Source of the DNA: a virus
Lineage: Duplodnaviria > Heunggongvirae > Uroviricota > Caudoviricetes
IMG/VR virus record: IMGVR_UViG_3300047554_000527
Location: 8,387-72,386 of that record
Reading direction: 5' to 3' (one strand)
Length of the DNA: 64,000 bases
Part shown: positions 3,930-43,209 of the stretch, in pieces
Layout of the letters: the number at the start of each line of letters is the position of its first letter
How positions within the stretch are numbered: position 1 is the first letter of the stretch
Translations under genes and position numbers: made by a program
The notes under the pieces: generated by a model
Database searches by the model: none
The model's input: only the letters and a program-made list of their open reading frames with translations
What the model was told of the DNA's origin: nothing

Positions 3930-3950
3930 GAATCTATTTATTGGACAAGG

Positions 3951-3978: not shown

Positions 3979-3989
3979 TTTTAAGACCT

Positions 3990-4799: not shown

Positions 4800-4807
4800 G
4801 GACATAT

Positions 4808-5452: not shown

Positions 5453-5455
5453 CAT

Positions 5456-10616: not shown

Positions 10617-10617
10617 T

Positions 10618-11238
10618 TTAATATTTCCCCGATGATAAAACGATTTGACAAATATGTTCTAATCGTTCAATGTGTTCAAAAGCCCGCCATGGGCTAGTAT
10701 CTATAGCCACTACTCCATGTCCCTTAATGCCTACAATGTCATAACTGATGTTGCCATAGTCGTCAAGTTTTAAATTCTTGTGACACTGGTCGGCAAGTTC
10801 TTGACTAATAGGAGGTACATCTCCTACATTAGGTGCTACCTTAGTATAGCGACTGAGTTCAGGGAAGCTGTCGGCAAGACTGCTCAACTCAATGCCGCGA
10901 TGCATAGCCGCAACACAATAAGTAGGATGTAGATGAACTACTACTCTAACATCATCACGATGCTGCCCCATATTTCGTTGTAATCCAAAATGTAACGGAA
11001 TTTCTCCACTGGGTTTTAAGTTAGCACTGATGTCAGTGTAGAACTCTTCTTGCCACAACATGCCATGAATACTGATCTTTTTAAATTGATCAGGTTGCAT
11101 AGTTTGCTTACGGACGCCACTGGGTGTGATATAAAAGTGATCACGATCGTGATGACGAATTGAAACATTGCCATCACGACTGGTAATCCAGTTGCGTCTA
11201 TATGCTTCAACTAATGTGTCGCATATAGTTTCTAACAT
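10618..11238 (-). CDS. class II aldolase/adducin-family protein
   Basis: VVVHLHPTYCVAAMHRG metal-binding His motif and N-terminal ...GNVSIR...ITPSG... pattern; start at ATG 11238 (TAATG overlap with peroxiredoxin stop), alternative 11271. Confidence 0.5.
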   Translation of the reverse strand: MLETICDTLVEAYRRNWITSRDGNVSIRHHDRDHFYITPSGVRKQTMQPDQFKKISIHGMLWQEEFYTDISANLKPSGEIPLHFGLQRNMGQHRDDVRVVVHLHPTYCVAAMHRGIELSSLADSFPELSRYTKVAPNVGDVPPISQELADQCHKNLKLDDYGNISYDIVGIKGHGVVAIDTSPWRAFEHIERLEHICQIVLSSGKY

Positions 11239-11771
11239 TATAGAGTCTCGCCGCCAACTGTGCGGTTGCAAGCACAGAGTTCGCCAGTCTGAAGCGCATC
11301 AAGAACACGAAGTGTTTCTTCCGGTGAGCGACCAACGTTCAAGTTATTGACAGTAACGTGCTGGATAATGTTGTCTGGATCAACAATAAATGTTGCACGA
11401 AGTGCGGCACCTGCTGGAGCATAGAATACACCTAGCTGCTCAATCAAGCTCAACTCGCCACGCTGTGTATCAGCAAATTGTGTGTGAGTAATCTTAGCAA
11501 GATCAGGGTGTGCTTTTTGCCATGCTAGTTTGCAGAACTCATTGTCTGTGCTACCTGTTAGCAATACTGCATCGCGATCTTTAAAATCACCTGCTAATTT
11601 GTCATAGGCAACAATTTCTGTTGGGCATACGAATGTGAAGTCTTTAGGGTAATAGACAACGACTTTCCACTTGCCTTCGAAAGACTTTTCAGTAATGTCA
11701 AAGAACTGATCGCTACCTGGGTTAATTCCAACTACGCTAAATGCTTCTAATTTATCGCCAACTGTTTTCAT
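11238..11771 (-). CDS. peroxiredoxin (AhpC/TSA family, 2-Cys type)
   Basis: FTFVCPTEI peroxidatic Cys motif; start at ATG 11771 preceded by GGAGAA SD; upstream part of 219-aa ORF judged non-coding. Confidence 0.75.
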   Translation of the reverse strand: MKTVGDKLEAFSVVGINPGSDQFFDITEKSFEGKWKVVVYYPKDFTFVCPTEIVAYDKLAGDFKDRDAVLLTGSTDNEFCKLAWQKAHPDLAKITHTQFADTQRGELSLIEQLGVFYAPAGAALRATFIVDPDNIIQHVTVNNLNVGRSPEETLRVLDALQTGELCACNRTVGGETL

Positions 11772-11911
11772 TTGTGTTTCTCCTTGTGTGTAAATGAAAT
11801 AGGAATTTCTAATTCCATAGTTAATTGTACATTTATTTACGCTATAAATCAAGGTTTTTTCATTGATTTTTCCTATGACTGAAATAGCTATGCTCAAAGA
11901 TAAACTCCCAA

Positions 11912-13418: not shown

Positions 13419-14138
13419 ATGTTAGAAATTTTATTATACACACTCGTCGTCACACAGATTACTATTGCATCTGTCACATTGTATCTGCACCGTGGTCAAG
13501 CACACAGGGCAGTAACATTCCATCCTGTAGTAGATCATTTCTTTAGATTATGGCTATGGCTTACAACAGGCATGAATACCAAGGAGTGGGTTGCTATCCA
13601 CCGTAAGCATCACCAAGGTAGCGACACTCCTGAAGATCCGCATAGTCCTAAAGTATATGGACTATGGAGAGTACTATTCGGTGGAGCCTTTCTATATGTT
13701 AAGGCATCTAAGAATAGAGAGATGATTGAGAAGTTAGGAGTAGGTACTCCTGACGATTGGGTAGAACGCAAAATATATACAGCGCATCCTTGGTTAGGTA
13801 TCCTAACAATGCTGATCGTAGATCTTGTTCTTTTCGGGGCTGTGGGTATAGTTGTATGGGGCGTTCAAATGATATGGATCCCGTTCTGGGCTGCAGGAGT
13901 AATTAACGGCCTAGCACATTCTGTAGGATATAGAAATCATGAAGTACCTGATACTAGCCGTAATTTGTTGCCTATTGCTATTTGGATTGGCGGTGAAGAA
14001 CTCCATAACAACCACCATGGAAAAGGTTCAGCAGCGAAATTTAGTCATAGATGGTTTGAGTTTGACATTGGGTGGTTCTACATCAAAACCTTAAGCGCTA
14101 TTGGGCTTGCAAAGGTTAGACCATCGAGCGCCGTTTAA
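13419..14138 (+). CDS. membrane fatty-acid (acyl-lipid/acyl-CoA) desaturase
   Basis: histidine boxes HRKHH and HNNHH, multiple TM segments. Confidence 0.7.
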   Translation: MLEILLYTLVVTQITIASVTLYLHRGQAHRAVTFHPVVDHFFRLWLWLTTGMNTKEWVAIHRKHHQGSDTPEDPHSPKVYGLWRVLFGGAFLYVKASKNREMIEKLGVGTPDDWVERKIYTAHPWLGILTMLIVDLVLFGAVGIVVWGVQMIWIPFWAAGVINGLAHSVGYRNHEVPDTSRNLLPIAIWIGGEELHNNHHGKGSAAKFSHRWFEFDIGWFYIKTLSAIGLAKVRPSSAV

Positions 14139-14238: not shown

Positions 14239-16299
14239 TCACTTGCTAGTCGCTCTGTAAATTCCGTCCCAATCTTTTGGTAGATCATGAGTTCTCATCT
14301 CCTCGATACGTTCTAACCACAGTTCGTAATAATGATCCATCTGACCATCAAACTCGCCCATTAGTTCTCGACACTGCTCTGCTGCCTTGTCCCACTGTTG
14401 TTTTCTATAGTAGGCTAACATTAGATCGTGTAGCTCTTTTGCCATGACATATTCTGCCATAGCTCCGGCATCTGTGTGTAACAGAGGTGTGTAGATGTTT
14501 AAGCCGATTGCCTTGCCTTTAACAGCAATACAATCTAACTCTAGACAGAAAAAGTCGTCTTTGACTTCATCATATGTTGAAGGACCGATGATTACTAATA
14601 CACCGTAACCTTTTGTCTGCCCTTCTAAACGGCTGGCAACTGATACAGGGTCACCTAATACATCGTAACCCATTTTGCCCTGTGCGCCAATGTTACCTAC
14701 TAGGATCTTACCTGTATTAACACCTGCACCCATACCTACTGGAGGTTTGCCAATGGCTTCTAATTGCTTGTTGAATTCTTCAACAGCCTTAATCATTTCA
14801 ATTGTAGTTTTAACAGCGCGGTAAGCATGACGATCGTCATCTAATGGAGCGCCGTGAATATGTAAGGATGCATCGCCGATAAACTTGATTAGGCATCCGT
14901 CGTTAGCAAATACAGGCTGAGCAATAGCAGTCATGTATTCGTTCATGATCTTAGTAAAGCCTTCTACATCTGCTCCATACTTCTCACCTAGTCCTGTAAA
15001 GTTACGCATGTCTGTCATAACTGCGGTCAGTATCTTTTCCTCACCGCCCAGCTTGATAAGATCTGGATTCTTTTGTAAGCGCTCAACTATAACTGGACTT
15101 ACATAACTTCCAAACTGTTTCTTGATCTGTTGCTTCTGTAAGAACTCACTTACAAACTTGACGCCATAGGCATGCAGAGCGACCAATACTGTGCCAGCGG
15201 TAAAGACAGTAGTGTCGAATAAGAATAAAAAGTTATTGAAAGCGTAGCGACTAGCAAGATAGCCCCCAACAGCAATAACAATTGTCGTTGCCAATCCAAC
15301 ATATACATACCTCGTTAAAAATAGTAAAATCAATCCTGCTACTAGAATAGCAATAATTTCTACACCGTCAGCGTAGTCTGGACGTTGTATAACAACATTA
15401 TTGATCATAGTTCCGACAACTGCTGCCTGTACTTCGTGTGGCCAAACTGCTCCTAGTGAAGTTGGTAAAGGGTTGCCAATACCTGCGGCTGTCGGTCCTA
15501 TGATAACAATAGCCTTTTCTAAATCTTTTGGTAACTTGCTTAAACTAAAGCTACGACTCTGCTGACTCCAGTCAATCCATACGCGACCTAGACTGTCTGT
15601 AGTAACAGGACCGTAAGCAGGAATACGCATTTTCTCTACACCGTTCTCATTCAACTTTACTTGGAAGGTCGAATCGCCGGCCGCTACGCGGAGTGTTTCC
15701 ATAGCTAGACTAGGGTATAACTTACCATCAACTGTGACAATCAAAGGTAATCGACGATTTACACCATCTACTTCGGGCAATGTGCCAGTTATGCCAACCC
15801 CTACTGCTGAATTTTCTAGTGCAGGTACGTTTGCAATAAGTCCCGGGTATTGAACAATTTGATCTAAGAACTCTGGGCCTAGTACAGCCGATCCTGGAAC
15901 ACGTGGTGTATTCTTAGTTTGTTGTGCAGGAGCACTGCCTAGAACTACTGGGAACTCTTTTAGAGTTTGACCCAGCTGACTGTCACCACCTGTACGGTCT
16001 GCTTCTGGCATGAGTACGTTAAGTACAACAAGGCCTGCGTTCCTCTGATATAGATCTCGTATAATTTCACTGTATCGTGCTCTAGGTAGTGGCCACTGTC
16101 CGTATTTGTCCAATGCTGCCTCATCAATATTTACAGTTACAATATTGTTGTAAGTTGGCTCTTTGGCAGTAATTAATGTGTCAAAATAACGTAGTCTTAC
16201 GCTTTCGACAAAAGTGGGATCTGCTACACGTATGCCCAGTACTAACGCTAAGGTCAGTAGAGCAGTCCAGGGGCTGGTTAGAACTTTTTTAAACATCAA
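14239..16299 (-). CDS. CHASE2 sensor domain-containing class III adenylate/guanylate cyclase
   Basis: N-terminal signal/TM then periplasmic domain, TM cluster, C-terminal cyclase core (...MTDMRNFTGL..., ...FIGDASL...). Confidence 0.7.
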   Translation of the reverse strand: MMFKKVLTSPWTALLTLALVLGIRVADPTFVESVRLRYFDTLITAKEPTYNNIVTVNIDEAALDKYGQWPLPRARYSEIIRDLYQRNAGLVVLNVLMPEADRTGGDSQLGQTLKEFPVVLGSAPAQQTKNTPRVPGSAVLGPEFLDQIVQYPGLIANVPALENSAVGVGITGTLPEVDGVNRRLPLIVTVDGKLYPSLAMETLRVAAGDSTFQVKLNENGVEKMRIPAYGPVTTDSLGRVWIDWSQQSRSFSLSKLPKDLEKAIVIIGPTAAGIGNPLPTSLGAVWPHEVQAAVVGTMINNVVIQRPDYADGVEIIAILVAGLILLFLTRYVYVGLATTIVIAVGGYLASRYAFNNFLFLFDTTVFTAGTVLVALHAYGVKFVSEFLQKQQIKKQFGSYVSPVIVERLQKNPDLIKLGGEEKILTAVMTDMRNFTGLGEKYGADVEGFTKIMNEYMTAIAQPVFANDGCLIKFIGDASLHIHGAPLDDDRHAYRAVKTTIEMIKAVEEFNKQLEAIGKPPVGMGAGVNTGKILVGNIGAQGKMGYDVLGDPVSVASRLEGQTKGYGVLVIIGPSTYDEVKDDFFCLELDCIAVKGKAIGLNIYTPLLHTDAGAMAEYVMAKELHDLMLAYYRKQQWDKAAEQCRELMGEFDGQMDHYYELWLERIEEMRTHDLPKDWDGIYRATSK

Positions 16300-16303
16300 C
16301 TAT

Positions 16304-18316
16304 TTATTGACGTATAACGGTGTTACATCCTGCCGGATTAGTGCAACTTTGTATAAGAGTAAAGCTCTTTCCGCCTGATTGTTCTACATCAACAGTAGCG
16401 GCTCCGCCTGCATTTGTAACGTCTATTCTTGCGTTATTTCCGCCTGAACCGTATTGATTTACCAGTACATTATGCCCGTTACCTGTCATTCTTACATCTA
16501 AATAGTGCTGTCCAGCGCCGGACTGTGTAGTAGTTAAAGTGTTGTTATCACCATTTACAGTGCTGAATAATAGTCTATTGTTATTGTTGCTCTGCGTGTG
16601 ATTGACGATATTGTTATTACCACTAATTGTTGTTTCTGTGTAGTTGGTTCCGATAGTGTTAGTCTGGCTAGATGTTAGGCTGTTGTTATATCCATTTACA
16701 TCTGCTTTGATATAGTTCGATCCTACTTGTGTGATACCAATAGTATTTGTGCCAGCACCGTCGAGAGTTAGCTCTGTACGATTTTTACTGCCAGATAAGT
16801 TGATATTAACTGTGTTATTATCTCCACCTATTTGTGTAACATGTACAGCATTGTTATATGTTTGTGCTGTATTGGCCCAAGTTGAGATTCTAGAATTTTG
16901 AGCAGTCCTATCGTTGTTGTTAGTAAATGATGTGCCGCTTTGTAGTGTTTGATTGCTAGGAGAGCCCGACTGTGTAATAGTTCCGCCTTGAATAGTAGGA
17001 GCTGCTGCCGCCTGTACTGGATCAACTGGAGTAGTAGTTCCGCCTGTCGCTGAACTTGTTGTTGAATTATTAGCATCGTAGTAATATGTAATTTCACTGA
17101 TCTGCATACTGTCGCAGTCTAATCCACAGCCTGTTCCTGCTTTTGTACTAGGAAAGAAAATATAGTAATAAACGTAAGCAGAAGAATTAGTAACGTTAAT
17201 CATACTGCTAGTTGTTAAACGACTATCAGTTAATGATAGGTTACCTTCTTGTATTAGTACCCAATTTACACCATCGTTACTACCATATAACTTATAGCTT
17301 GTGGGATCTCGCCCACTAAAATCGTTAGCGGTAGTAATAGTAAAACCATTGACTACTCGACCTGTGTTTAGTTTAACAGTAACACCTGCATTTAATTTGT
17401 CAAAGTTTAAGTACTTAGTGTTTGGATTATTGTCGAACGCATTGGCAGCACCTTCACCTGCCGGACTGTTATTACTCGTTGGCCATATGTTAGTAATTTT
17501 AACTGTGGAGTTATCAAAATATATAGGTGTAGGTTGAGGAGTTGGAGTTCCAGCAGTAGCGCCTGTACCAGCATTAGTTACGGTCATTGTGTTGTTATAT
17601 CCGCCAGCCTGGCCGCTAGTTGTTCCACCTGTCGCACTTGGACCTCCACCGTTGGCGTTAGCAACTAAGCCAACTGTGCTAGAACCTGGCACACCATCAC
17701 TATTAACAATACAGGCATTTGATCCTCCCCAAGCACCTTGGCAAGCACCAAATCCTGGACTACTTGTCCAACCTTGTGCTGTTATGCCGTTGTAAGGTCC
17801 AAACTCTGGGTTGTATGTTAAGTTGCCTCCCCCGTTTAGTGTAAAGGTAGGAGCACGATACCAAGGACCATAATCCCCTGCCCAATAACTTCCATCAATG
17901 CCGTACATGCTAACTTTAGCATAAGCAACCTGTGATGCTTGTGCTGAAGTTAATGTTGAACTAACAGTAAGTGTTGTCCAGGGCACACTTGTATCAATAC
18001 ACGGATTACCGCAAATAGCATTTGGGTTTGGTAAGTTAGCACTATGGGCAGTTGCTACTTGAGTTATTAATCCTCCACTGCTGTTGTAGAATTCTATCTT
18101 AACGTTGGCTGTATCACTTTGGCCGGCACGGCCGCCACCGTTGTGTGCCAGGACACTAAAGGTAAATGTACCTCCAGCCTGCATAGCAGAATTAAAAACT
18201 ACATGCTGACTAATTGTTGTAGTAACATACGCAGTGGCAATAGCATTATAACCTGTCTGAGCTTGCGAACTAAAACAGAGTGCTAGTAGAAAAAGTTGTA
18301 GTAAATATTTTATCAT
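16304..18316 (-). CDS. secreted protein with F5/8 type C (discoidin) domain and C-terminal curlin (CsgA-like) repeats
   Basis: signal peptide MIKYLLQLFLLALCFSSQA; discoidin-like NAFDNNPNTKYLNF...YKLYGSNDGVNW; repeats VNQYGSGGNNARIDVTNAGGAATVDVEQSG matching curlin Q-x-G-x-G-N-x-A pattern. Confidence 0.6.
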   Translation of the reverse strand: MIKYLLQLFLLALCFSSQAQTGYNAIATAYVTTTISQHVVFNSAMQAGGTFTFSVLAHNGGGRAGQSDTANVKIEFYNSSGGLITQVATAHSANLPNPNAICGNPCIDTSVPWTTLTVSSTLTSAQASQVAYAKVSMYGIDGSYWAGDYGPWYRAPTFTLNGGGNLTYNPEFGPYNGITAQGWTSSPGFGACQGAWGGSNACIVNSDGVPGSSTVGLVANANGGGPSATGGTTSGQAGGYNNTMTVTNAGTGATAGTPTPQPTPIYFDNSTVKITNIWPTSNNSPAGEGAANAFDNNPNTKYLNFDKLNAGVTVKLNTGRVVNGFTITTANDFSGRDPTSYKLYGSNDGVNWVLIQEGNLSLTDSRLTTSSMINVTNSSAYVYYYIFFPSTKAGTGCGLDCDSMQISEITYYYDANNSTTSSATGGTTTPVDPVQAAAAPTIQGGTITQSGSPSNQTLQSGTSFTNNNDRTAQNSRISTWANTAQTYNNAVHVTQIGGDNNTVNINLSGSKNRTELTLDGAGTNTIGITQVGSNYIKADVNGYNNSLTSSQTNTIGTNYTETTISGNNNIVNHTQSNNNNRLLFSTVNGDNNTLTTTQSGAGQHYLDVRMTGNGHNVLVNQYGSGGNNARIDVTNAGGAATVDVEQSGGKSFTLIQSCTNPAGCNTVIRQ

Positions 18317-19428
18317 CTCTGTACAATAGTAATAATTGTATTACCGCCCGAATTAACTCTGTTCTTAAATTCAATACTACCCTGAATCTGTGTTATTACA
18401 CTGTTTTGTGTAAGAGGAGTTGTGACACATTGTAAGTCACTACCGTTATCTCTACAAAGACCTACTTGACCTTCGTCTTTGGTTACAACTATTCCGCTGG
18501 ATCTACGCCAGTCGGGCAATACACTATCTACATCATCTTTTAGATAATCTTCATCTAATCCATTTCCAATAATGTCAAACAAACTGTCTAAGAAATGATT
18601 GTCTAAAAAGTTACGAGTTAGTCTATCTTGAAAGAATTGTGCGTTCTGTTGATCTAGTTTGTTTTCTAATCCTTGCTCTCTTAAGAAATCGACATCTAAT
18701 ACATTAACTGTCGAAGCTGAATCTTTTTTGCTTGCTTGTTTTAATTCTAGGGGTGGGCTAAGAATTAAAAGATTGCTCATAGCATCTTCACTTAGATTTA
18801 AAATTATTGGTCTAGTAGGTTGAGCACTTCTGCTATTAACCTTAGTTGCTTGGAAAGGTTGATTAAGAATAACTTGCCCAACGTCAGTTTCAACAATAAT
18901 AGTGCCAGTAATACAGTTAGCTTCTATATCACGTTTAGATCTAGTAGGACGGTCGTTGGGACAACTAGGTAATAGTACAACTGTGCTAGCACCTACTTCA
19001 TCTACTGTGGCTGTAAAATCTGTACCACGAACACTGATAGTAGCAGTAGGAGTATTAACAGCTACGTTTTGCGGCGAGTTTTTAGCAATTTGGCCGCTGG
19101 CGTACCTAACAGTGCCCAGTGCCACCTTAACGCCCAACTTACCAGCCTTACTTTTAGGATCATATACAAAGTCATCAATTACTAGTCTTGAGTTTTCATT
19201 AACCTGTACTCGAGTCTGATCCTCGAAGGTTATTCCAACTTTGCCCGCCGCTGTCTTTACTGAATCGTTCATCTCGACTCCTGTGCCCTTGTTGGCCGTT
19301 AGCGTCGAGTTCTTGCGCTGTATGCTGGGAGGTGTGTTCAGCAACTCGGTCACTGTTCCTATATTGGCATGACTGCTCAATGAGAAACTCGTCAATAAGC
19401 CTAATAAGATTAAGCGACATAGTGTCAT
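18313..19428 (-). CDS. secreted protein of unknown function within curli-like operon
   Basis: signal peptide MTLCRLILLGLLTSFSLSSHA; 371 aa; 4-nt overlap with flanking genes. Confidence 0.4.
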   Translation of the reverse strand: MTLCRLILLGLLTSFSLSSHANIGTVTELLNTPPSIQRKNSTLTANKGTGVEMNDSVKTAAGKVGITFEDQTRVQVNENSRLVIDDFVYDPKSKAGKLGVKVALGTVRYASGQIAKNSPQNVAVNTPTATISVRGTDFTATVDEVGASTVVLLPSCPNDRPTRSKRDIEANCITGTIIVETDVGQVILNQPFQATKVNSRSAQPTRPIILNLSEDAMSNLLILSPPLELKQASKKDSASTVNVLDVDFLREQGLENKLDQQNAQFFQDRLTRNFLDNHFLDSLFDIIGNGLDEDYLKDDVDSVLPDWRRSSGIVVTKDEGQVGLCRDNGSDLQCVTTPLTQNSVITQIQGSIEFKNRVNSGGNTIITIVQR

Positions 19429-19436
19429 TTCACACC

Positions 19437-20219
19437 TTAATTACCAGTGATAATAGTGTATGTATTTCCGCTACCTGCTATAGCAAGATTAACAGTAGTA
19501 TCAATAGTACCACTTTGTGTGATAGTTGTGCTATTGCTAGAACCGGTAATGTTCAATGTAGCATTATGTCCATTGACTCCGCCTCCACTTTGAGTGATGC
19601 TGGTTACGTTAGTTGCTCCATTAGAAGTTAAATTAACTGTGCCTTTTGCACCAGTTAAGTTAAGAGTAGTAGAGTTTCCACCACCACCTGTTTGGTTAAG
19701 AATAACACTAATTTGATCAGCATTAAGAGTTGCTACAACACTGTTGTTAGCGCCACCTGCTGTATCGACTACAAAACTACTGTTAGAACCTAACATGTTT
19801 AAGTTAGCGATAGCACCATCGCCTGTTTGTTCAATATTAACAGTGTTGCTATTAGCTGTACCAGTTTCGGCATTGTTCATGTTGATTGTACCTACAGCAT
19901 TGTTACCTGTAACTTTATAGATTACACTAGTATCAACACCGCCGCTGGCTGTGGCTGTAACAACACCTAAGTTTAAAATGTTGCCGCTACCTATTTGTTC
20001 TACAGTTAATGTAACGTTATCACCTTTAATTTTAGACGGTGTGGTGTTACCTGTACCGGAACCTTGTATTCCTCGAATACGGTTTGATGCACCATCTTGT
20101 GTCATTGTAATAACACCATTGTCGCCTGCTTGATCGACGTAGATGGTATTGTCTGCCGCAAAAGATGACGCAGCAAACAATATCGCTATAACTGCCATAA
20201 CTTTATTCAGCTTCTTCAT
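19437..20219 (-). CDS. secreted curlin-repeat protein (CsgA/CsgB-like amyloid subunit candidate)
   Basis: signal peptide MKKLNKVMAVIAILFAASSFA (start 20219); repeated ITQSGGGVNGHNATLNITGSSNSTTITQSG units; Gly/Asn/Thr/Gln-rich. Confidence 0.55.
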   Translation of the reverse strand: MKKLNKVMAVIAILFAASSFAADNTIYVDQAGDNGVITMTQDGASNRIRGIQGSGTGNTTPSKIKGDNVTLTVEQIGSGNILNLGVVTATASGGVDTSVIYKVTGNNAVGTINMNNAETGTANSNTVNIEQTGDGAIANLNMLGSNSSFVVDTAGGANNSVVATLNADQISVILNQTGGGGNSTTLNLTGAKGTVNLTSNGATNVTSITQSGGGVNGHNATLNITGSSNSTTITQSGTIDTTVNLAIAGSGNTYTIITGN

Positions 20220-20281
20220 ATATACTACCAGTTCTTTTGGAACTGTCTCCTTGTTGGGGGAATTATGTATCATTCCCCGTT

Positions 20282-21193
20282 TTATTTGGTCCTAATTTCT
20301 TTGCTTCCTTCAGCATTTTTTCCGTTGCCGGACTGTTCCGTTGGGGGAGTTGCTTCTGCGGCTCCTTTACTCTCGGTCGTCTTTTGAACCAGCTCATTTT
20401 TATCTCCTTTGTAGTTCCAAAGCCCTTTACGAGCTCCATCTTTAATTAGCTCAACTACTCCGGCTTCGATTGCGGCCTTGACAGCATAAGTGCCCGGCTC
20501 GTTAATCGTTAAACCTGCTTCACCCTCAAACGCTTTAGTTCCCATATCAAAAAACTTCAATGCTGTTACCGCATCAGCACTACTGATGATTGTTTTTTGT
20601 ACGGTTACTGATGTAAGAACTTTACCAGTATTCACGCTAACTGCTCGCAAACTGATAGTAACTACATCCTGACTCCACTGTGTCTGTTTGCCTATTCCAA
20701 AAACTCTGGCTCCGATGCCACCGCTTTTAATAGAGCTATCATACCCAATAATACCGCCTTCTATAATAATCCCTGCAAACTGCATGGGCATTAAAGGTTT
20801 TGCGTTGTTGCCTTCATATGCTTCGCGCATCTGACGGATAATTAATCTTTCTTTAGTTAAGTTGTCAATACCTACACGCTCAACAACATCAAACCAACGA
20901 CCGCCACCTACATCTTGTAGGGCTTTAATCAAGAAGCTTTCCGCCCCTTGTGTTACTGCTGTACTTAAACTAGCAATGTTAGCCTGAGGGCGACGTTGTC
21001 CTGTTAGATCTCTAAAACTATAAACTGCTACACTTACTGGCCTTTCTGCTGCCGGTAATGGAACGGTATCAAATTCTTTCTGCATTACGCTAGAAGGAAT
21101 TGTTGGCATCTCTTCAAGAAGCCCATCTTGCTGTGTTATTGCACAGCCTGTTAATAAACTTGTGATTGCTAGAGTTAATAGTGTCTTTTTCAT
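20282..21193 (-). CDS. csgG: curli production assembly/transport lipoprotein CsgG
   Basis: lipobox LLTGC; extended colinear similarity to E. coli CsgG (...VAVY.F.D.TGQ..., ...A.VMVEGSIIGY.SNVKSGGVGARYFGIG..., ...NEPV..C.M.AIE.GV..LI.DG...GLW). Confidence 0.8.
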   Translation of the reverse strand: MKKTLLTLAITSLLTGCAITQQDGLLEEMPTIPSSVMQKEFDTVPLPAAERPVSVAVYSFRDLTGQRRPQANIASLSTAVTQGAESFLIKALQDVGGGRWFDVVERVGIDNLTKERLIIRQMREAYEGNNAKPLMPMQFAGIIIEGGIIGYDSSIKSGGIGARVFGIGKQTQWSQDVVTISLRAVSVNTGKVLTSVTVQKTIISSADAVTALKFFDMGTKAFEGEAGLTINEPGTYAVKAAIEAGVVELIKDGARKGLWNYKGDKNELVQKTTESKGAAEATPPTEQSGNGKNAEGSKEIRTK

Positions 21194-21194: not shown

Positions 21195-21683
21195 TTATAC
21201 TCCAGGAATTACGAAACTACTTAACGGAACATCAATTTGTGTATTAATGCCCGGGCCGATAACAGTTAATCTAATCATTTCATTAAGATCAGCATCGACT
21301 ACTTTTTGCCAACTAATTCTGTTACCTTGGAAATCTATTTCACCCCTACATTGATCAACAGGAGTAGAAGTAGTACAACCATTGTTGGCAAACATAGCAG
21401 TAGCTACGTTTTGGCTGATCTGTGCGTAGATACGCGACTCTAAGTTACTGATAAACTTAGCTAAGTTAGTGTTCTTTTTGTCTGCTATTTCTTTATCGAT
21501 AGCAGCTTGAATTTTGTCTTGTAAAGCCTTTCTGCGTGTAGCTTCTTGGTTCTCAATAGTTAAGACGTGACTGCTATAGCCTGCGCCGTTAAACGCAGGG
21601 CTTTTAAACGTAAAATCGTTAATTGGTGCAGCCGTTGCTGTTAGTGTTGCAGACAAGGCCAGACCGAGAAATATTAATCGCAT
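21195..21683 (-). CDS. CsgF-like curli assembly protein
   Basis: signal peptide; mature N-terminus INDFTFKSPAFNGAGY resembles CsgF TMTFQFRNPNFGGNP; immediately upstream of csgG. Confidence 0.45.
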   Translation of the reverse strand: MRLIFLGLALSATLTATAAPINDFTFKSPAFNGAGYSSHVLTIENQEATRRKALQDKIQAAIDKEIADKKNTNLAKFISNLESRIYAQISQNVATAMFANNGCTTSTPVDQCRGEIDFQGNRISWQKVVDADLNEMIRLTVIGPGINTQIDVPLSSFVIPGV

Positions 21684-21762: not shown

Positions 21763-22800
21763 TTAAACAGTTGGAGAAATACCTGTTTGTGGTGCAGGTG
21801 TAGTTCCCATAGGACCTTTAGGAGGAACAGGCGCACCTATTTTAGGTTTTGACACATCTAATGCAGGCTTCATAGGTTGTGCCTTTGCAGGCTTTGGTAA
21901 AGGATTCCACGGACGACCTGTGCTAGGATACGAAGAAATACGTGCTCCTGCTATACCAAAGTTTCCTCTATCTGCAGAGAATCTAACTATTAACACAGGA
22001 TCATATCCGTTTGCAGGAATATCTCCATTGTGCCAGGTATGTGCTCCAGTTAGAACAAAAGAACCTCTAGTACCTTTTTTAAGTGTAGGGTGTCCCTGCA
22101 ACACTAAATCTACATTACTACGACCAGGAGCACCGCCAAAGTCTTTTCCAAAAACAGTGAGAGCTTTTAATTTAGGATTCTTGATAGGAACCCCATATGT
22201 TGGACCTCTCGGAAATTGATCTCCGAATGCTGCCTTAATGCCTTTGACAAATGCCGATACTTCTGGATCTGAGGCAAGATGATCAACTCCGCCCCAATGA
22301 CCGAATCCTTTAGGTGTTGTGCCATCTTTTAAACTTATCCAAGCTACCGGGGTGCCTTGATCATCTACTATTTCTACGTCTGCTTTAACGTTTCCTGGAA
22401 CCTTAACAGCACCAGCGGCATTAACTACGCGAGTACCTATAGCTACTTTAATAAACGGTTGCCCGTTAAGATGCTCTTTAATAGTAGTATCGAGAGCAAG
22501 AATTTGCCCTTCTTCTTTTTCTAATCTTCCGCCTTGAGCTTCTGCGGGTTTTACCAAAACTGTAGCACCGTCGAAATGAATTACTTTACCATCAGCGGAG
22601 ACAGTAGATCCCGGTAAAGTTCTAGCAATATTTTGAACGCTGTCGAAACGATTTGCCGAAGGAACAACTACTTTAACTGTTGTACCTGTTTTCTTTTCAA
22701 CATCAAACCCCATGGGTTTAATATAGGAAATTAGTTCATCTGCTGATGTTTTTTCTGAAATAATTTCGATAGTTTCGTATAAAAAGTCACGTGCTCGCAT
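21763..22800 (-). CDS. hypothetical protein with Pro-rich C-terminal tail
   Basis: 345 aa; C-terminus PKPAKAQPMKPALDVSKPKIGAPVPPKGPMGTTPAPQ. Confidence 0.35.
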   Translation of the reverse strand: MRARDFLYETIEIISEKTSADELISYIKPMGFDVEKKTGTTVKVVVPSANRFDSVQNIARTLPGSTVSADGKVIHFDGATVLVKPAEAQGGRLEKEEGQILALDTTIKEHLNGQPFIKVAIGTRVVNAAGAVKVPGNVKADVEIVDDQGTPVAWISLKDGTTPKGFGHWGGVDHLASDPEVSAFVKGIKAAFGDQFPRGPTYGVPIKNPKLKALTVFGKDFGGAPGRSNVDLVLQGHPTLKKGTRGSFVLTGAHTWHNGDIPANGYDPVLIVRFSADRGNFGIAGARISSYPSTGRPWNPLPKPAKAQPMKPALDVSKPKIGAPVPPKGPMGTTPAPQTGISPTV

Positions 22801-22806: not shown

Positions 22807-23475
22807 TTATTTACCTATTTCTGGGAACAGCACTTCATCAACGAAATCACGGATAACAGGTTCAGGAACACCCATGGCAATCATGCTACGATAAACATGT
22901 GGGTTTTTCTTTTGATTAATGCAGTAGAAATTTTGACGATCTTTAGAATTGGCAGTGCCCTTGCGATTGACGTTGCTAATATAGTATTCTAGGGTTTTTA
23001 AACCTAGGCTAACAAATTGATCAATTTCACTAGATTCTGTAAGATTGCCGGCAGCTACCATACTAGGGCTAAAGATGTTACTAGCCCACTCAGGCAGCTC
23101 ACGCTTTTTGTTCCACGTGATATCTTTAACTTCGTTAGCAAACCAATCATGCATTGTGTGTTGATTACTAACTAGGCTGAAGTCGTGGAATGCACCTGTG
23201 ATCTTGTTTTTACCGCAGACAGTATCGAACCCCCAAATAGGCGTATCGTCATCAGCATGTGGAAATACTGTAGCGTGTAGAATATAAATTCCGTGGCTTT
23301 CAGTTTTATCTACAATCTCAATGTGTGCTCTACGATAAGTTTCTGCATAATAGACATGATTTTCCCATGTGTATTTTGCATCGTGTTCTGGATTTCTGTG
23401 TAGTGTGCCAGTACGTGCAAATATCTTTTGTATTTCATCTGCACATGCTCGCATCTTTTCCCATACATGACTCAT
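22807..23475 (-). CDS. ferredoxin-dependent bilin reductase (FDBR family; PebB/PebS/PcyX-like), copy 2
   Basis: 222 aa, paralog of upstream FDBR (shared W.NKV...YRR.HI..VD......HC.VFPH......PI.GFD.V.GKNKITGAFHDFS...); ATGA overlap. Confidence 0.65.
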   Translation of the reverse strand: MSHVWEKMRACADEIQKIFARTGTLHRNPEHDAKYTWENHVYYAETYRRAHIEIVDKTESHGIYILHATVFPHADDDTPIWGFDTVCGKNKITGAFHDFSLVSNQHTMHDWFANEVKDITWNKKRELPEWASNIFSPSMVAAGNLTESSEIDQFVSLGLKTLEYYISNVNRKGTANSKDRQNFYCINQKKNPHVYRSMIAMGVPEPVIRDFVDEVLFPEIGK

Positions 23476-24155
23476 TGCGTTTCTCCTATCTTAGGAAAAA
23501 GACACTGCTGTATGAATACCTGCACATCTTCAGGATTAAGCCCTAACGCTGTCATAACCTTGGGAGTGTGCGGATTTAGTCTTTGATTGTCGCAGTAATA
23601 GTCTTGTGCGGACTGTGTATCTACTGCTGTATTGTTTGATAGGCCTACATTATCTAGGTAGTATCTAAGATCGTTAATAGCTGTTAGATACAGTTGATTT
23701 ATTTCTTCAGGATCTTGTACGTTGCCTGCAGAAATCATACTAGGTGTAAAGATACGTTCCGCCCAGTCTGGTAAGCGTCTAACTTTATTCCATTCTAGTT
23801 TTTGTGCAGAATCTGCAAACCAGTCGAGCATGAAGTGTTCGGGATCACCTGCAGGACTAAAGTCATGGAATGCACCTGTAATTTTATTTTTTCCTGCTAC
23901 TACATCAAAACCGAATATAGGTGCAGGATTGTGAGTATGGGGGAACACACAACAATGCATCATCCAGAGACCGCGAGTTTCCCTAGCATCAACGACGTCG
24001 ATGTGTGCTCTCCTATAAAGACTACTGGTCCAAACTTTGTTGTACCAATTGAATCTGTCTAGTCCAGGCTCTTGTATTTCTTGCCCGGTGCTGTTGAACA
24101 GCCTCTCAAATTCTTGCTGAATATCAATCAGCGTTGGCCAAACTAAGTTCGTCAT
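23472..24155 (-). CDS. ferredoxin-dependent bilin reductase (PebA-like), copy 1
   Basis: 227 aa FDBR-fold signature; immediately downstream of heme oxygenase as in cyanobacterial ho1-pebA-pebB clusters. Confidence 0.65.
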   Translation of the reverse strand: MTNLVWPTLIDIQQEFERLFNSTGQEIQEPGLDRFNWYNKVWTSSLYRRAHIDVVDARETRGLWMMHCCVFPHTHNPAPIFGFDVVAGKNKITGAFHDFSPAGDPEHFMLDWFADSAQKLEWNKVRRLPDWAERIFTPSMISAGNVQDPEEINQLYLTAINDLRYYLDNVGLSNNTAVDTQSAQDYYCDNQRLNPHTPKVMTALGLNPEDVQVFIQQCLFPKIGETQ

Positions 24156-24672
24156 TGTAGCTGTTCATAATTTTAATTGCCCAGTCAAAGGCCACGTTTG
24201 CTTCTTCTGCCATGCTGTCGTCTAGCATAGCACGAATTTTTTCTTTAAGGCCTTCGACATCATTAAAATCTAAGTTACGATGAGGAGCATTAATTACTTT
24301 TCTAATCATTTGACCGCCGAACAAGTCTCCCATGTGCCATGTGTAAAGATGTGCGGTAATCTTTGCTGGTTGTCCTACAAGGTCTAGGATATAACGACTG
24401 TAGGCAATAGTCTCAGGACGAAGTCTAGGATAGACCCCGTTATTCATCTCTTTAGCATCAAGGTACAGTTTTAATGCTCGTTCGATTTCTAACATGTCTG
24501 TTGTAAGTCCGGCATCTCTTGCAACAGTTTCGATACTGGCATAGAAGTTAGACTTTTGATAGGTATAGTCTGCCCAAACTTCAATTGGCATGTTTCTTTT
24601 AAACACTGCCTTCATGAATTTAGTTTCTTCTGCGGCTGTATGACTGTCTTTGGTTAGCTCTTTTAAACTCAT
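24124..24672 (-). CDS. heme oxygenase
   Basis: 182 aa; HO-like N-terminal LKE.T...H...E...FMK motif and overall length. Confidence 0.6.
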   Translation of the reverse strand: MSLKELTKDSHTAAEETKFMKAVFKRNMPIEVWADYTYQKSNFYASIETVARDAGLTTDMLEIERALKLYLDAKEMNNGVYPRLRPETIAYSRYILDLVGQPAKITAHLYTWHMGDLFGGQMIRKVINAPHRNLDFNDVEGLKEKIRAMLDDSMAEEANVAFDWAIKIMNSYNDELSLANAD

Positions 24673-25887
24673 TTATTCCTCGTAGCGTTTTAGCACAATG
24701 CAAGCGGAACGCCCGCTAAATGCAAAGTTATTCTTTATAGCGTACTTAGCATTGATAGCAGATGCTTCTGTAGGAATTGACATACCCGAATCGATAGGAG
24801 TTTTTAGATTGATAGTAGGCGGCGTTGTTTGTGTTTTTAAAGCCATTAGCGTATAGATAGTTTCAATAATGCCGCTAGCCGCTAATGTGTGTCCTATCTG
24901 CGCTTTATTCGCTACCATAGTTTTTTCAGGAAACAATTCTCGCATAGCATAGAATTCTATATCATCTCCTGCCTGAGTCCCTGTTGCATGAGCGTTAATA
25001 TATCCGATGTCGGATGTTGTAATTCCTGCAGACTTTAATGCTCTAGCAACTGAGGTTTTGGCAGCAATTCCATCTTTATCAGGACTGGTGTCGTGATGTC
25101 CTGCGCTAGCAACTCCTGATCCTACGATTAACCCATATATTTTTGCACCCCTAGCTTTTGCTTTTTCTAAAGGCTCAATAACTAAACAGCCTGCGCCCTC
25201 TCCTGCATTAAATCCTGCTCGATTTTGGTCAAAGGGTGTTGCAGGTTCGTTGCTCAGTGCTCCGAGATTTTGAAAATAATAACATTGATATGCTTCAATC
25301 GGCATATCTGCGCCACCGACTACAACTGCATCAATATCTGGCTCTGTTTCTAAAGTTCTTAACGCATAATCTATACTTAGAAGTCCGGTAGAACAGGCAG
25401 CGTTAATACCAGTAGATAATCCATTAAACTCAAACATTCGAGAAATAGTACCGCTAAGGTAATCTAATGTTGATTGAATTACCTGTCTAGGTAATATTCT
25501 TTCTCGGCCGTCTTCTAATGCTCGTGTAAGGTACCCTCTACTTACTGTATTTCCGCCTGTAGTGCTATAAACAACTGAAACATTTTTACTTTCGATGCCG
25601 CTATCTTTAACAGCATCTTCTACAGATCGTATTCCTAATTTAATGCAAGGATCCCAATGCTGGGCGATTCCACCATAGGCCATTTCTTCATAGATAGGAA
25701 TAGGTGCCGGAGCACCTATTTTTACTGTAAGACTTTTATGTGTTTTCGGAAACTTTTTAGGATTGTCTTCTGGCCAGGAAATTTCTTTAATAGCAGTTTG
25801 TCCTGCTAGTAAATTTGTCCAATTTTCTGCTAGTGTTTCGCCTAAGCCATTTATAATACCAATACCTGTTACTGCGTATTGTTTCAT
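24673..25887 (-). CDS. beta-ketoacyl-ACP synthase (FabF/FabB-type KAS)
   Basis: active-site Cys (INAACSTGL), His-His pair (NAHATGT, QIGHTLAASG), 404 aa. Confidence 0.7.
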   Translation of the reverse strand: MKQYAVTGIGIINGLGETLAENWTNLLAGQTAIKEISWPEDNPKKFPKTHKSLTVKIGAPAPIPIYEEMAYGGIAQHWDPCIKLGIRSVEDAVKDSGIESKNVSVVYSTTGGNTVSRGYLTRALEDGRERILPRQVIQSTLDYLSGTISRMFEFNGLSTGINAACSTGLLSIDYALRTLETEPDIDAVVVGGADMPIEAYQCYYFQNLGALSNEPATPFDQNRAGFNAGEGAGCLVIEPLEKAKARGAKIYGLIVGSGVASAGHHDTSPDKDGIAAKTSVARALKSAGITTSDIGYINAHATGTQAGDDIEFYAMRELFPEKTMVANKAQIGHTLAASGIIETIYTLMALKTQTTPPTINLKTPIDSGMSIPTEASAINAKYAIKNNFAFSGRSACIVLKRYEE

Positions 25888-26192
25888 TCTTCCTCTACTC
25901 TGATAACCAAAGGATATCCGTTTTGTCGGGCTAACATAGTTCCTTCGACGCCTTTTTGTTCGGCAATTTCGTGCGGATAAATTCCTGCAATGCCTGCACC
26001 TTCATTATGAACCTGCATAGTGACTGTTTTTGCACTGGCTTCATTATGTTTAAAAACGTGCATTAGTAGAGCAATGACAAAATCCATAGGAGTGTGGTCG
26101 TCATTCTGTAGGACAACTTTATAAAGTCCGGGGCTTAAGATATCAAAATCATTTTCAGTTTCGACGATATCTTTAGTTTTAGTTTCTGCCAT
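25884..26192 (-). CDS. clpS: ATP-dependent Clp protease adaptor ClpS
   Basis: YKVVLQNDDHTPMDFVIALLMHVF... matches ClpS core. Confidence 0.7.
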   Translation of the reverse strand: MAETKTKDIVETENDFDILSPGLYKVVLQNDDHTPMDFVIALLMHVFKHNEASAKTVTMQVHNEGAGIAGIYPHEIAEQKGVEGTMLARQNGYPLVIRVEEE

Positions 26193-26246
26193 CTTAAACT
26201 CTTTTCTGTGTATGGTGTAAATTGGGGGATTGCTCCCCCAATGCTT

Positions 26247-26672
26247 TTACTTGATGGCAATCATGCGAGGCTTGAGTGCTTCAGGTACTTCACGTGTTAG
26301 TTTAACACGAAGAATACCGTTTGTCAATTCTGCATCGCCCACGATGATATAATCAGCAAGTGTAAAGCTACGCTCAAAATCTCGAGCAGCTAGACCACGA
26401 TGTAGATACTTGCTAGCATCTTCATCTTTTAGACGCTGTCCTCGGATAGTGAGTTGGTTTTGATCAACTTCAATAGTGATATCCTCGCGATCAAACCCTG
26501 CAACAGCGATTTCAACTTCAAAAGTGTTGTCGTCGTGTTTTAGGACATTGTATGGTGGATAGTTGTGTTGAGCGGAGTTTGCAAAGCGTCTTTCAGCATC
26601 TGTGAAAATACGATCAAATCCGATAAGAGCTCTGTTTAGAGCAGAAGTGTCAAAACGAGTAATTGCGTTCAT
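26247..26672 (-). CDS. small heat-shock protein Hsp20 (IbpA-like)
   Basis: alpha-crystallin domain; start ATG 26672 after AGGAGA SD giving MNAITRFDTSALNRALIGFDRIF (IbpA-like N-terminus). Confidence 0.65.
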   Translation of the reverse strand: MNAITRFDTSALNRALIGFDRIFTDAERRFANSAQHNYPPYNVLKHDDNTFEVEIAVAGFDREDITIEVDQNQLTIRGQRLKDEDASKYLHRGLAARDFERSFTLADYIIVGDAELTNGILRVKLTREVPEALKPRMIAIK

Positions 26673-26752
26673 AGTTTTTCTCCTTAATAAGCAAGAACGT
26701 TTGGGCATTGTGCCCGATTTGTAAGACCCATTATGGCGTCCTACAAATTTAT

Positions 26753-32592: not shown

Positions 32593-33588
32593 TTAGTCCT
32601 TAGTTGGAAACGGCCACTGTGCGGCAGGATTTTGACCTGCTGGCTTAGCCTTGGGCACATAGCGCCAACGTTCTGCTTGACCGTGATCAGCATCTAGGAC
32701 TCCAAGATCGTAGCCGTTGTCATAGTTCTGATAATCCTTACCACTATAGGTGTTATGGTAGTCCAAACGGCGGAAACCATCGCTGTAACCCTTCTTAAAG
32801 GCACTGTCGCCTTCGCGCGGAGCATCCGCATAAACAGTTTGGGTACCGTTGGCATTGGCCTGTACAGGAGCAGTAAAAGCATCTTCTGCCTTGACGCCCA
32901 TTTCACCGATAACTTCGTAGCGGCAAGCACGACCTTTGGCGCCGTTGTAGTCCGACGGAATCGAAACAACGTCACGTGGATTGATCTTGACAATAACGAT
33001 ACGGCTGTCACTGCCACCGAAGTGGTCCAGGTAACTCATACCACAGAAGTGAAGACCAGTGGAGCAGGTTTGATCCTTGTTGTCATCAACTTGGTTACGT
33101 TCCATTTCCACAATCTTACCAGGACTATTGTCCATAGTACCTGAATGGATATCCAGGAAGTTACGACGGACTTTCTTGTAAGCAAGGAAGTGACCATCTG
33201 GAGTTAGCGGCAGGTTGTTCTTTTCCAAGAAGCCGTAGAGTTCATCGACTGAACGCTTGCTTGGGTTCAACATGAGGTTTTCCATGAACAGAACCATGGG
33301 CTCAATGCTAAAGCCTTCTTCCAGCATGGCAATCATACGAGTTGCCAGTACGCCAGCAAACGGAGCACCTTTCCAGAACAGTTTCTCGCCCTGGATGCTA
33401 ACGTTACCACGACCGTAGTTGAGTACGATTTTAACTGGATCGATGATCTGCTTGACAGCATCCCAATCTCCGGCCTTGATAGCTTCAACTACCTTGGTAT
33501 AGGTAATGTGGGTTTTCGCAATAGTATGCGGCTTGCCATCAATAACAACAGTTACGTTTTGGCCTTGGATAATAAACGGATAACTCAT
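32593..33588 (-). CDS. rIIB: rIIB protein
   Basis: extended colinear match to T4 rIIB (...LENL..NPS...V..L..FL.N......DG.F.AYK.V...HS.T.DNSPGK.V.M.R..V.D...QTCS.GLH.C..SY..HFG.S.SR.V.VK..PRDVVSIP.DYN.AK.R.C.YEV); start 33588 right after rIIA stop. Confidence 0.85.
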   Translation of the reverse strand: MSYPFIIQGQNVTVVIDGKPHTIAKTHITYTKVVEAIKAGDWDAVKQIIDPVKIVLNYGRGNVSIQGEKLFWKGAPFAGVLATRMIAMLEEGFSIEPMVLFMENLMLNPSKRSVDELYGFLEKNNLPLTPDGHFLAYKKVRRNFLDIHSGTMDNSPGKIVEMERNQVDDNKDQTCSTGLHFCGMSYLDHFGGSDSRIVIVKINPRDVVSIPSDYNGAKGRACRYEVIGEMGVKAEDAFTAPVQANANGTQTVYADAPREGDSAFKKGYSDGFRRLDYHNTYSGKDYQNYDNGYDLGVLDADHGQAERWRYVPKAKPAGQNPAAQWPFPTKD

Positions 33589-33589
33589 T

Positions 33590-40956: not shown

Positions 40957-41036
40957 GATAAACTCCTTATCAGTTAAATCACCCTTGCGTCTATCGCTTG
41001 GGCTTAGTTATAGTATAACAGAACCCCATTGTCCTG

Positions 41037-41564: not shown

Positions 41565-41623
41565 AATATTCTTTTGCGGTATAACTCAGTGGTTGTCCAT
41601 AAGATTGTAACTCATCTTTGTGT

Positions 41624-41995: not shown

Positions 41996-42087
41996 TTTCT
42001 AATCCTTTGACAAACAAACTGCCTACCATTGCCAACAGGAACAAACAGGCAAGACCTACAGCATAAACTATCAAAAATTCAATCATA

Positions 42088-43107: not shown

Positions 43108-43209
43108 AGAAAAATCCTTTCTATAATTGTTAGCGCGGAGTCTATCTCTTTGCTGTATGTATTTATTATACAGGAAACATGCCCACCTGTAAAGTGGGCA
43201 TTTGTCCAA

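Follow-up and report, generated by a model that had tools for sequence, protein, structure and literature searches.

Two bilin reductase genes of different active-site type behind one heme oxygenase gene in a large T4-like freshwater phage

Why would a phage keep two bilin reductase genes behind a single heme oxygenase (HO) gene, and would the two enzymes make the same product? The question is raised by a locus at 22807-24672 of a 64,000-nt stretch (hereafter the window, to which all coordinates refer) of the viral record IMGVR_UViG_3300047554_000527, in which a viral heme oxygenase gene (vHemO) is followed by two genes encoding ferredoxin-dependent bilin reductases (FDBRs), labelled FDBR1 and FDBR2 in this order. 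The hemO-pcyX cassette, its link with 5-aminolevulinate synthase (ALAS) and its setting in phages of heterotrophs have already been published; in those parts of the literature that were searched, no description was found of two FDBRs in one phage cassette or, as a distinct entity, of the subclade that contains FDBR2. The interpretation preferred here, to which a probability of about 55% is given, is that FDBR1 and FDBR2 would be two stand-alone reductases acting in parallel and giving different products, as judged from their sequences.

Gene content and affiliation of the tandem

The three genes are tightly packed on the minus strand. The vHemO gene (24124-24672, 182 aa) matches PF01126 (E=8.5e-13, 49 bits for a cut-off of 23) and overlaps FDBR1 by 32 nt at its 3' end. 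FDBR1 (23472-24155, 227 aa) in turn overlaps FDBR2 (22807-23475, 222 aa) by 4 nt (ATGA), and an AGGAG ribosome-binding site is found upstream of FDBR2. Both reductases match PF05996, with 59.6 bits (E=4.7e-16) for FDBR1 and 56.3 bits (E=4.7e-15) for FDBR2, the cut-off being 31. An initial annotation of the window, made without database searches, had placed in this interval a heme oxygenase and two tandem FDBRs forming a module that leads from heme to biliverdin and phycobilin in a T4-like phage: its coordinates are exact, the Pfam matches all lie above the curated cut-offs and the module itself is supported.

In vHemO, His11 is aligned with the proximal His, the heme ligand, of human HO-1 and HO-2, and the distal-helix motif, GDLSGGQ in HO-1, is kept as GDLFGGQ at residues 115-121. 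From its family membership and intact catalytic residues, vHemO is predicted to convert heme to biliverdin IX-alpha; related phage HemOs (marine and CB_2) are enzymatically active (PMC11480375).

FDBR1 and FDBR2 share 41% identity along their entire sequences (E=2e-69). A motif that had been described as shared by the two could be found in part: VFPH, a gap and PI.GFD.V.GKNKITGAFHDFS are common to both, but the gap counts five residues instead of six and the preceding HC occurs in FDBR1 only, FDBR2 having HA. For both proteins the best match among solved structures is PcyX_EBK42635 (5OWG), with E=9.4e-64 and 218 bits for FDBR1 (residues 4-227) and E=1.6e-44 and 155 bits for FDBR2, PcyA reaching only ca. 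50 bits with either. This agrees with the earlier suggestion that enzymes of the PcyX kind, as found in uncultured phages of heterotrophs, might be involved. The best cultured match is the PcyX of Pelagibacter phage Mosig, to which FDBR1 is 46% identical; FDBR1 further displays 66% identity over 149 aa to an acI-SAG sequence and 43% to EBK42635. The PcyA equivalog model NF002760 gave 82.9 and 85.0 bits for FDBR1 and FDBR2, respectively, far under its cut-off of 206. As for the Peb enzymes, the PebA model NF009720 scored 15.8 bits with FDBR2 (cut-off 263) and had no match with FDBR1, the PebB model matched neither FDBR, and BLAST searches of the two against PebA, PebB and PebS references returned E-values of 0.09 or worse.

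Residue positions are given hereafter in native PcyX numbering derived from 5OWG (chain number minus 8), which reproduces the published Asp55. FDBR1 carries Asp55, Met67, His69, Cys71 and Asp86 (DMHCD), a signature identical to that of PcyX 5OWG, and can be regarded as a canonical PcyX with a predicted function of phycoerythrobilin (PEB) synthase. At the same positions FDBR2 has Glu55, Ile67, His69, Thr71 and Asp86, of which Glu, His and Asp are E53, H67 and D84 in its own numbering; the His/Asp pair is present in both enzymes, and Asp at position 55 in FDBR1 only. The PcyA triad Glu76-His88-Asp105 is matched in FDBR2, FDBR1 having Asp in place of Glu. These residues are well conserved around FDBR2: at least 120 clusters, 51-97% identical to it, were recovered from 5.8 billion proteins, and among its 120 closest clusters the Glu, as well as the complete Glu-His-Asp triad, is found in 118 of 120, and Ile, His and Thr are found in all of them. 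An AlphaFold2 model of FDBR2 (pLDDT 91.7) has TM-scores of 0.81 to PcyA and 0.86 to PcyX, and a structure search with this model gave 46 PDB matches at E<=1e-3, every one of which is an FDBR or RCCR; FDBR2 is thus confidently modelled as a complete FDBR.

In neighbour-joining trees (300 bootstraps), for which references were taken from Supplementary Data 6 of PMC11480375, the viral sequences, 107 in all, fall into a single clade as opposed to CB_2 vPcyA and the PcyA of Bradyrhizobium ORS278 and Cyanothece (bootstrap 0.95), so that grouping of either FDBR with cyanobacterial or AX-clade PcyA was not seen in the tree. Both reductases are thereby assigned to the phage PcyX lineage, and their reading as PebA and PebB is not supported. 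FDBR2 is located inside a subclade of 72 sequences (0.72), of which 70 are E[IV]HTD sequences and the other two GROS_540 and GROS_823. The DMHCD sequences, FDBR1 among them, lie outside this Glu-type subclade; the smallest clade enclosing them includes the KLHND type as well and has a support of only 0.39. Because FDBR1 and FDBR2 lie in different deep subclades, the pair is not a recent duplication.

Four alignment columns strictly separate the Asp-type from the Glu-type viral sequences, namely 32 (F/Y), 55 (D/E), 71 (C/T) and 89 (A/C), and position 67 separates them as well, with Met in the Asp-type and Ile or Val in the Glu-type. At positions 55, 67 and 68, the Asp-type (PcyX) has D, M and M or A, and the Glu-type has E, I or V, and L; all eight PcyA references have E, I or V, and V or L, matching the Glu-type. 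Based on beta-strand periodicity, residues 67, 69 and 71 would alternate on the strand of the catalytic His and face the same way, and positions 55, 67 and 71 would be pocket-facing neighbours of the catalytic residues. Glu being carried by all outgroups, the most parsimonious assumption is that it is ancestral in the viral clade and that the Asp/Met of PcyX is derived. PcyX itself lies in the PcyA lineage, yet makes PEB. Taken at face value, these comparisons point to the Glu-type subclade as a distinct lineage in which the residues around the D-ring vinyl site, including those of FDBR2, are in the PcyA state. What has been called the "PcyX" clade holds at least two fixed active-site states, the commoner freshwater one keeping the PcyA triad.

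Apart from these two states, the position equivalent to PcyA Glu76 and PcyX Asp55 is highly variable over phage FDBR clusters (D, E, S, N, K and Q) and its neighbours on the His strand co-vary, as in the K/L/H/N/D type (GROS_540/823; representatives P0121-P0270), a variability which suggests that further regiospecificities may exist among phage FDBRs.

Cassette architectures, retention and origin

About 290 related loci were surveyed in IMG/VR (three scans), JGI metagenomes and GTDB genomes and by exact-protein look-ups; the tallies of architectures are raw, the same contigs recurring between scans, and L-numbers designate surveyed loci. In what follows, D stands for an Asp-type (PcyX) gene, E for a Glu-type gene and HO for hemO. 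The first IMG/VR set with two look-ups comprised ca. 100 loci with hemO and one FDBR gene versus 8 tandems, and the signatures found in it were EIHTD (55), DMHCD (33), EVHTD (30) and KLHND (10). The scan for FDBR1-like sequences and later look-ups gave 71 HO-D, 6 D-HO, 10 HO-D-E and 1 truncated D-E, five of these tandems being IMG/VR contigs already encountered. From the JGI metagenome scan came 49 HO-E loci, 13 tandems and 2 loci with HO-hydrolase-E. Altogether, tandems were found in 32 loci, the window and 31 relatives, in which the order is invariably hemO-Asp type-Glu type and the Asp-type copies comprise 17 non-identical ones; in some of these phages, both active-site states are maintained side by side under purifying selection (see below). 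No Glu-type gene above 50% identity was found in the GTDB species genomes searched; these genomes contained just three distant PcyX-like matches, all in metagenome-assembled genomes.

Some less common arrangements were also observed. In loci of the K/L/H/N/D type (L025-L034 and L039), hemO does not overlap the FDBR gene. A second architecture combining both FDBR types is that of contig IMGVR_UViG_3300010354_014451 (34 kb), in which an Asp-type PcyX gene (L005 5983-6678) sits among tail-fibre-like genes with no adjacent hemO, ca. 25 kb from a hemO-Glu-type pair (L066 7484-8672); a chimeric assembly is possible in this case. Natural fusions of HO and a PcyX-like FDBR into a single polypeptide were detected in metagenomes in both orders (P0128, 504 aa; P0155, 391 aa; P0259, 380 aa).

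The initial annotation had taken the two reductases for a PebA/PebB-like pair, and a sequential relay can indeed be envisaged in which one FDBR performs the first two-electron step and passes dihydrobiliverdin on to the other. The gene order and the tight coupling by a 4-nt overlap resemble pebA/pebB operons, and a helper enzyme would be plausible for PcyX, which is reportedly slow in vivo (PMC13197396). As in the PebA/PebB route and with cyanophage PebS, FDBR genes are found downstream of a heme-derived substrate, here two adjacent ones, and PEB is expected from at least one enzyme. The survey, however, speaks for independence: in most loci either type stands alone with hemO, from which each would act on biliverdin by itself, and the mutual dependence or constant co-occurrence of the two FDBR types that is a trait of PebA and PebB was not seen in the surveyed loci. 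Furthermore, the PebA and PebB models remain unmatched, the window enzymes are of a different FDBR lineage, and both have the full His/Asp pair of the stand-alone four-electron enzymes PcyA and PcyX. The PebA/PebB-like assignment is not supported by these results and a relay is considered very improbable.

How the tandem has been retained was addressed with the orthologues from other tandem loci, which share 51-82% amino-acid identity with those of the window (18-49% different). In two orthologue pairs with unsaturated dS, the ratio of non-synonymous to synonymous substitution rates (dN/dS) was 0.04-0.06 for HO, 0.05-0.08 for FDBR1 and 0.05-0.07 for FDBR2: all three cassette genes are under strong purifying selection.

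The HO of the tandem and the PcyX-type gene next to it have different affinities. Protein distances from the HOs of tandem cassettes range from 0.24 to 0.73 to HOs of Glu-only cassettes versus 0.86 to 0.97 to those of PcyX-only cassettes; for the window HO, taken through L127 whose HO is identical, the values are 0.59 and 0.94. The window HO groups with HOs of Glu-type-only cassettes, and HO co-evolves with its Glu-type partner. The Asp-type copies of the tandems are mutual nearest neighbours falling into two subgroups, with the exception of that of L291, which groups with single-cassette PcyX genes and indicates a second origin, the tandem having thus arisen at least twice. The simplest history would be the insertion of a PcyX-type gene into a native hemO-Glu-type cassette, that is between hemO and its native Glu-type partner, in large T4-like freshwater phages. 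Asp-only, Glu-only and double cassettes all occur in one syntenic frame, with ClpS/Hsp20 on the upstream side and CsgF/CsgG/FecR on the downstream side, which implies that related phages have exchanged this slot with one another.

In sister phages, the slot between hemO and the Glu-type gene is occupied by an unrelated gene encoding a 191-aa alpha/beta-hydrolase with an HSLGG nucleophile motif (L044 9426-10001, L052 7429-8004 and L078 7430-8008; also L225 and L228), which is translationally coupled in the same manner as the PcyX gene. That this product might be a decayed FDBR was rejected, given its hydrolase affiliation with HSLGG and the lack of any signal with the FDBR hidden Markov model.

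A recombinant origin of this kind, a Glu-type HO with a PcyX-type gene, would also suit a reading in which the two FDBRs are redundant isoenzymes, both PEB synthases that would differ only in their kinetics, in the ferredoxin they use or in expression and dosage, with the tandem as a long-lived intermediate of cassette replacement between related phages. Both enzymes fall in a single viral PcyX-like clade (0.95), both have 5OWG as their best match, syntenic related phages manage with either type alone, and the exchange D55E reportedly left the product of PcyX as it was. Such redundancy is difficult to reconcile with the strong purifying selection acting on both copies across lineages that have diverged to 51-82% amino-acid identity, with at least two origins of the tandem, and with differences at positions 55, 67 and 71 that are fixed within each clade and not expected of mere isoenzymes. 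It is regarded as unlikely; should both copies make PEB, the finding would come down to ordinary isoenzyme redundancy.

The locus can be compared with the closest published systems. Like the hemO-pcyX cassette of uncultured marine phages and of Pelagibacter phage Mosig, it has a short phage HO gene overlapping a downstream PcyX gene in a T4-like myovirus of a heterotroph, and the D55/M67/H69/C71/D86 set of Mosig and EBK42635 is that of FDBR1. It differs in that Mosig, a 141-kb marine pelagiphage as opposed to the large freshwater phages considered here (related contigs of 193-335 kb), has a single pcyX, when the window has a second FDBR of another subclade directly after the first, and in that the window HO comes from a lineage normally partnering a Glu-type enzyme and not PcyX. 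Relatives of both reductases occur in the Grosse Fuchskuhle lake dataset (PMC11480375), with GROS_623 being 57% identical to FDBR2 and GROS_794 64% identical to FDBR1. In those parts of that study that were searched, cassettes have one FDBR per contig with no mention of two FDBRs per cassette, and Glu-type sequences (e.g. GROS21-1_SAMEA9560623) are lumped under "PcyX", none of them having been assayed.

Products of the two reductases

If the two enzymes act in parallel, as preferred here, vHemO would open host heme to biliverdin IX-alpha with release of iron and CO, and FDBR1 and FDBR2 would both draw on this one biliverdin pool as stand-alone four-electron reductases. FDBR1 would convert biliverdin to 15,16-dihydrobiliverdin and then to PEB. 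FDBR2 would most likely reduce both the 18-vinyl group and the A ring of biliverdin, yielding phycocyanobilin (PCB), or at least a product other than that of FDBR1. Electrons would be provided by host ferredoxin, which must be used because none is encoded in the window, where Cys-motif scans of 108 open reading frames (ORFs) and Pfam searches of ten small Cys-rich or unannotated ORFs detected no phage ferredoxin.

PCB appears the likeliest product of FDBR2 in view of its Glu-His-Asp triad and of the aliphatic Ile/Val two residues before the catalytic His; these are the Glu, Ile/Val, His and Asp of the D-ring vinyl site of PcyA, on which the proposal of 18-vinyl reduction is founded. Reduction of the 18-vinyl group by PcyA requires Glu76, a residue described as PcyA-specific, its counterpart in PcyX being Asp (PMC13446030; PMC10151467), and CB_2 vPcyA, which is without Asp55, makes PCB (PMC11480375). 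The latter enzyme and its counterpart in Bradyrhizobium sp. ORS278, two AX-clade PcyAs that experimentally convert biliverdin to PCB, resemble FDBR2 in their active-site residues: the equivalent of Glu76 is Glu, the catalytic His and the Asp are conserved, and Val or Ile precedes this His by two residues; both are also encoded beside a heme oxygenase. Unlike these, FDBR2 groups with the viral PcyX-like clade (0.95), is just 30-34% identical to AX-clade PcyA (30% for CB_2) and has AFHDFS and N-P-H where AX-clade PcyA has FLDLSP and N-E-H. The CB_2 enzyme being divergent and outside the viral clade, its PCB activity is not simply transferable to FDBR2. Cyanobacterial and cyanophage PcyAs (PDB 2D1E and 2G18) likewise share with FDBR2 the fold (TM-score 0.81) and the Glu-His-Asp triad, and differ from it by an identity of 25-34% and by the NF002760 scores of 83-85 bits, well short of the cut-off.

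Several points weigh against the assignment of different products. Asp55 of PcyX is reportedly non-catalytic and the exchange D55E is said to have given no PcyA; if this holds, Glu alone cannot carry the PCB prediction. FDBR2 keeps the PcyX-like AFHDFS and N-P-H (positions 198-200), its score with the PcyA equivalog model is far under the cut-off (85 versus 206 bits), and the internal split of the neighbour-joining trees is only moderately supported (0.72). Since either type can be found alone in the syntenic slot, the two could be functionally interchangeable. A bilin lyase, a phytochrome, a globin-like acceptor and a ferredoxin were not found in the window. Finally, no assayed member of the Glu-type subclade was found in the literature, and FDBR regiospecificity is poorly predictable from sequence (PMC13193486). 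The full proposal, namely that one cassette yields PEB from its PcyX copy and PCB or another bilin from its Glu-type copy in a non-phototrophic host, and that the Glu-type represents the surviving "PcyA-state" ancestor of the PEB-making PcyX, is offered tentatively, with somewhat less than an even chance of being right. It is founded on the presence of Glu in every outgroup (CB_2, Bradyrhizobium, cyanobacterial and cyanophage PcyA), the Asp/Met state being derived.

The purpose of the module can also be seen differently, in a manner compatible with either enzymology: the identity of the product would be irrelevant, the cassette would drive heme breakdown, for iron release or for relief of HO inhibition by biliverdin, and two reductases would raise the flux. 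Iron supply has been discussed for such cassettes (PMC11480375), the hosts are apparently non-phototrophic heterotrophs, and no bilin acceptor (GAF/phytochrome, globin/BBAG or lyase) was found among the ca. 40 annotated ORFs of the window. The presence of ALAS on the same phage would push tetrapyrrole synthesis rather than scavenging, and the conserved, clade-specific residue signatures argue for selection on product chemistry, all of which makes this view improbable.

If the cassette does give PEB and PCB, the paralogue pairs would define a few pocket residues (55, 67 and 71) that switch FDBR regiospecificity, a matter which, to our knowledge, exchanges of single residues have so far failed to resolve, and such naturally paired enzymes offer a ready set for testing the determinants of D-ring versus C15=C16 reduction. 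The tandem suggests that some phages may need more than one bilin, which would point to signalling or regulatory targets rather than to simple iron scavenging.

Phage setting and neighbouring genes

The T4-like hallmarks mentioned in the initial annotation are present as rIIA (33590-35791; phrog_612, E=1.9e-128) and rIIB (32593-33612; phrog_609, E=2.6e-81), which together with an array of 18 tRNA genes (24-2408) and with relatives in IMG/VR identify the window as part of a T4-like phage; no structural genes were found in its 64 kb. When 24 kb around the locus were compared by megablast with 50,697 phage genomes, nothing matched, and the phage is without close cultured relative. Identical or related contigs of up to 193-335 kb come from lake metagenomes, the setting being that of a large freshwater T4-like phage. 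That its host is not a cyanobacterium, as had been hinted, is in line with the surroundings of the module, which contain nothing cyanobacterial, and with homologues of its FDBRs in a Pelagibacter phage and of its curli genes in phages of SAR11 and OM43.

The ALAS gene that had also been noted (vAlaS; 55759-56952, plus strand) is confirmed by TIGR01821 (535.6 bits for a cut-off of 338.55). Its longest ORF (55693-56952) starts with TTG; translation probably begins with ATG at 55759 and would give a product of 397 aa that is close in size to the homologues of L043, L044 and L130 (399-403 aa). With vAlaS, located 31 kb from the hemO module, the window has all three members of the "broken" cassette hemO-pcyA/X-valaS that has been published (PMC11480375), in which hemO and an FDBR gene likewise lie together with ALAS elsewhere and a fatty-acid desaturase is also present. 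In the window, the latter is a DesA-family enzyme (13419-14138; 417.9 bits for a cut-off of 400). ALAS is directly followed by a gene for a DUF454 protein (56949-57368, plus strand; PF04304, E=1.7e-28), a pair also found in L043 and L130. Divergent from ALAS lies a gene for a radical-SAM protein (54705-55823, minus strand) whose weak best match is the prokaryotic viperin family (34 bits for a cut-off of 180); as its longest ORF overlaps that of ALAS, both genes probably start at internal ATGs.

Upstream of hemO, genes encoding ClpS (25884-26192, minus strand; PF02617, E=3.4e-26) and a FabF-like beta-ketoacyl-ACP synthase (KAS; 24673-25887, minus strand; PF00109 and PF02801) form with the tandem a single co-directional string, ClpS-KAS-HO-FDBR1-FDBR2, without gaps: a 4-nt overlap joins ClpS to KAS, and the KAS stop directly adjoins the HO start (0 nt). 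Both are context genes and no bilin enzymes. The KAS gene, of the beta-ketoacyl-ACP synthase II kind, is missing from this position in L043 and L044. ClpS and Hsp20 genes occur directly upstream of hemO in ca. 130 related loci whichever the FDBR type, and in 85 loci DnaK is found too, which is not the case in the window; ClpS, Hsp20 and hemO make up a conserved proteostasis-plus-heme island (25884-26708 for its ClpS/Hsp20 part in the window). A ClpX gene is located at 58970-60202. The 54-nt gap between Hsp20 and ClpS contains a GC-rich perfect palindrome, ATTGGGGGATTGCTCCCCCAAT (26221-26242), possibly a terminator or a regulatory hairpin at the start of the ClpS-KAS-hemO-FDBR string. A scan for promoters and terminators found sites at chance frequency and defined no transcription unit.

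On the other side, the ORF just downstream of FDBR2 (21763-22800) was considered as a member of the module and rejected: it encodes a generic T4-like hypothetical protein also found in cyanophages S-PRM1 and S-CAM9 and in Sinorhizobium phage phiM12, for which no PDB relative was detected. Next to it are the curli secretion genes for CsgF (21195-21683) and CsgG (20282-21193), which have homologues in Pelagibacter (SAR11) phage HTVC008M and Methylophilales (OM43) phage Melnitz, with 46-49% identity for CsgG. The gene beside them (19437-20273) may encode a curlin-like substrate, its 278-aa product being a Gly/Asn/Thr-rich repeat protein with a signal-like N-terminus. Further downstream (14239-19428), three proteins are encoded in a row, namely an adenylate/guanylate cyclase of 686 aa with a CHASE2 sensor, a 670-aa protein with an F5/8 type C (discoidin) domain and a 371-aa FecR-domain protein, the FecR and discoidin proteins being syntenic in related phages.

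A 19th tRNA gene (48345-48419) has the anticodon CTA of an amber suppressor (labelled tRNA-Pyl by ARAGORN). Among 66 non-overlapping ORFs of at least 100 aa, none stops with TAG, 39 stop with TAA and 27 with TGA, the TAG trinucleotide overall not being depleted in the window. The phage carries a suppressor tRNA and at the same time appears to avoid TAG as a stop codon; a recoding check prompted by this tRNA gave no convincing case of an ORF with in-frame TAG read-through in the window.

Finally, two further groups of metabolic genes were detected. A NAD+ salvage pair (39559-43209) encodes a 465-aa NAMPT, 60% identical to that of Ralstonia phage RsoM2USA, and a 373-aa fusion of NMNAT and Nudix. 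A sugar-nucleotide and glycan cluster (3300-11900), which is partly syntenic in L044, comprises a methyltransferase, a GT34-like glycosyltransferase, a DegT aminotransferase, two epimerase/dehydratases, a split transketolase-like protein and a class II aldolase.

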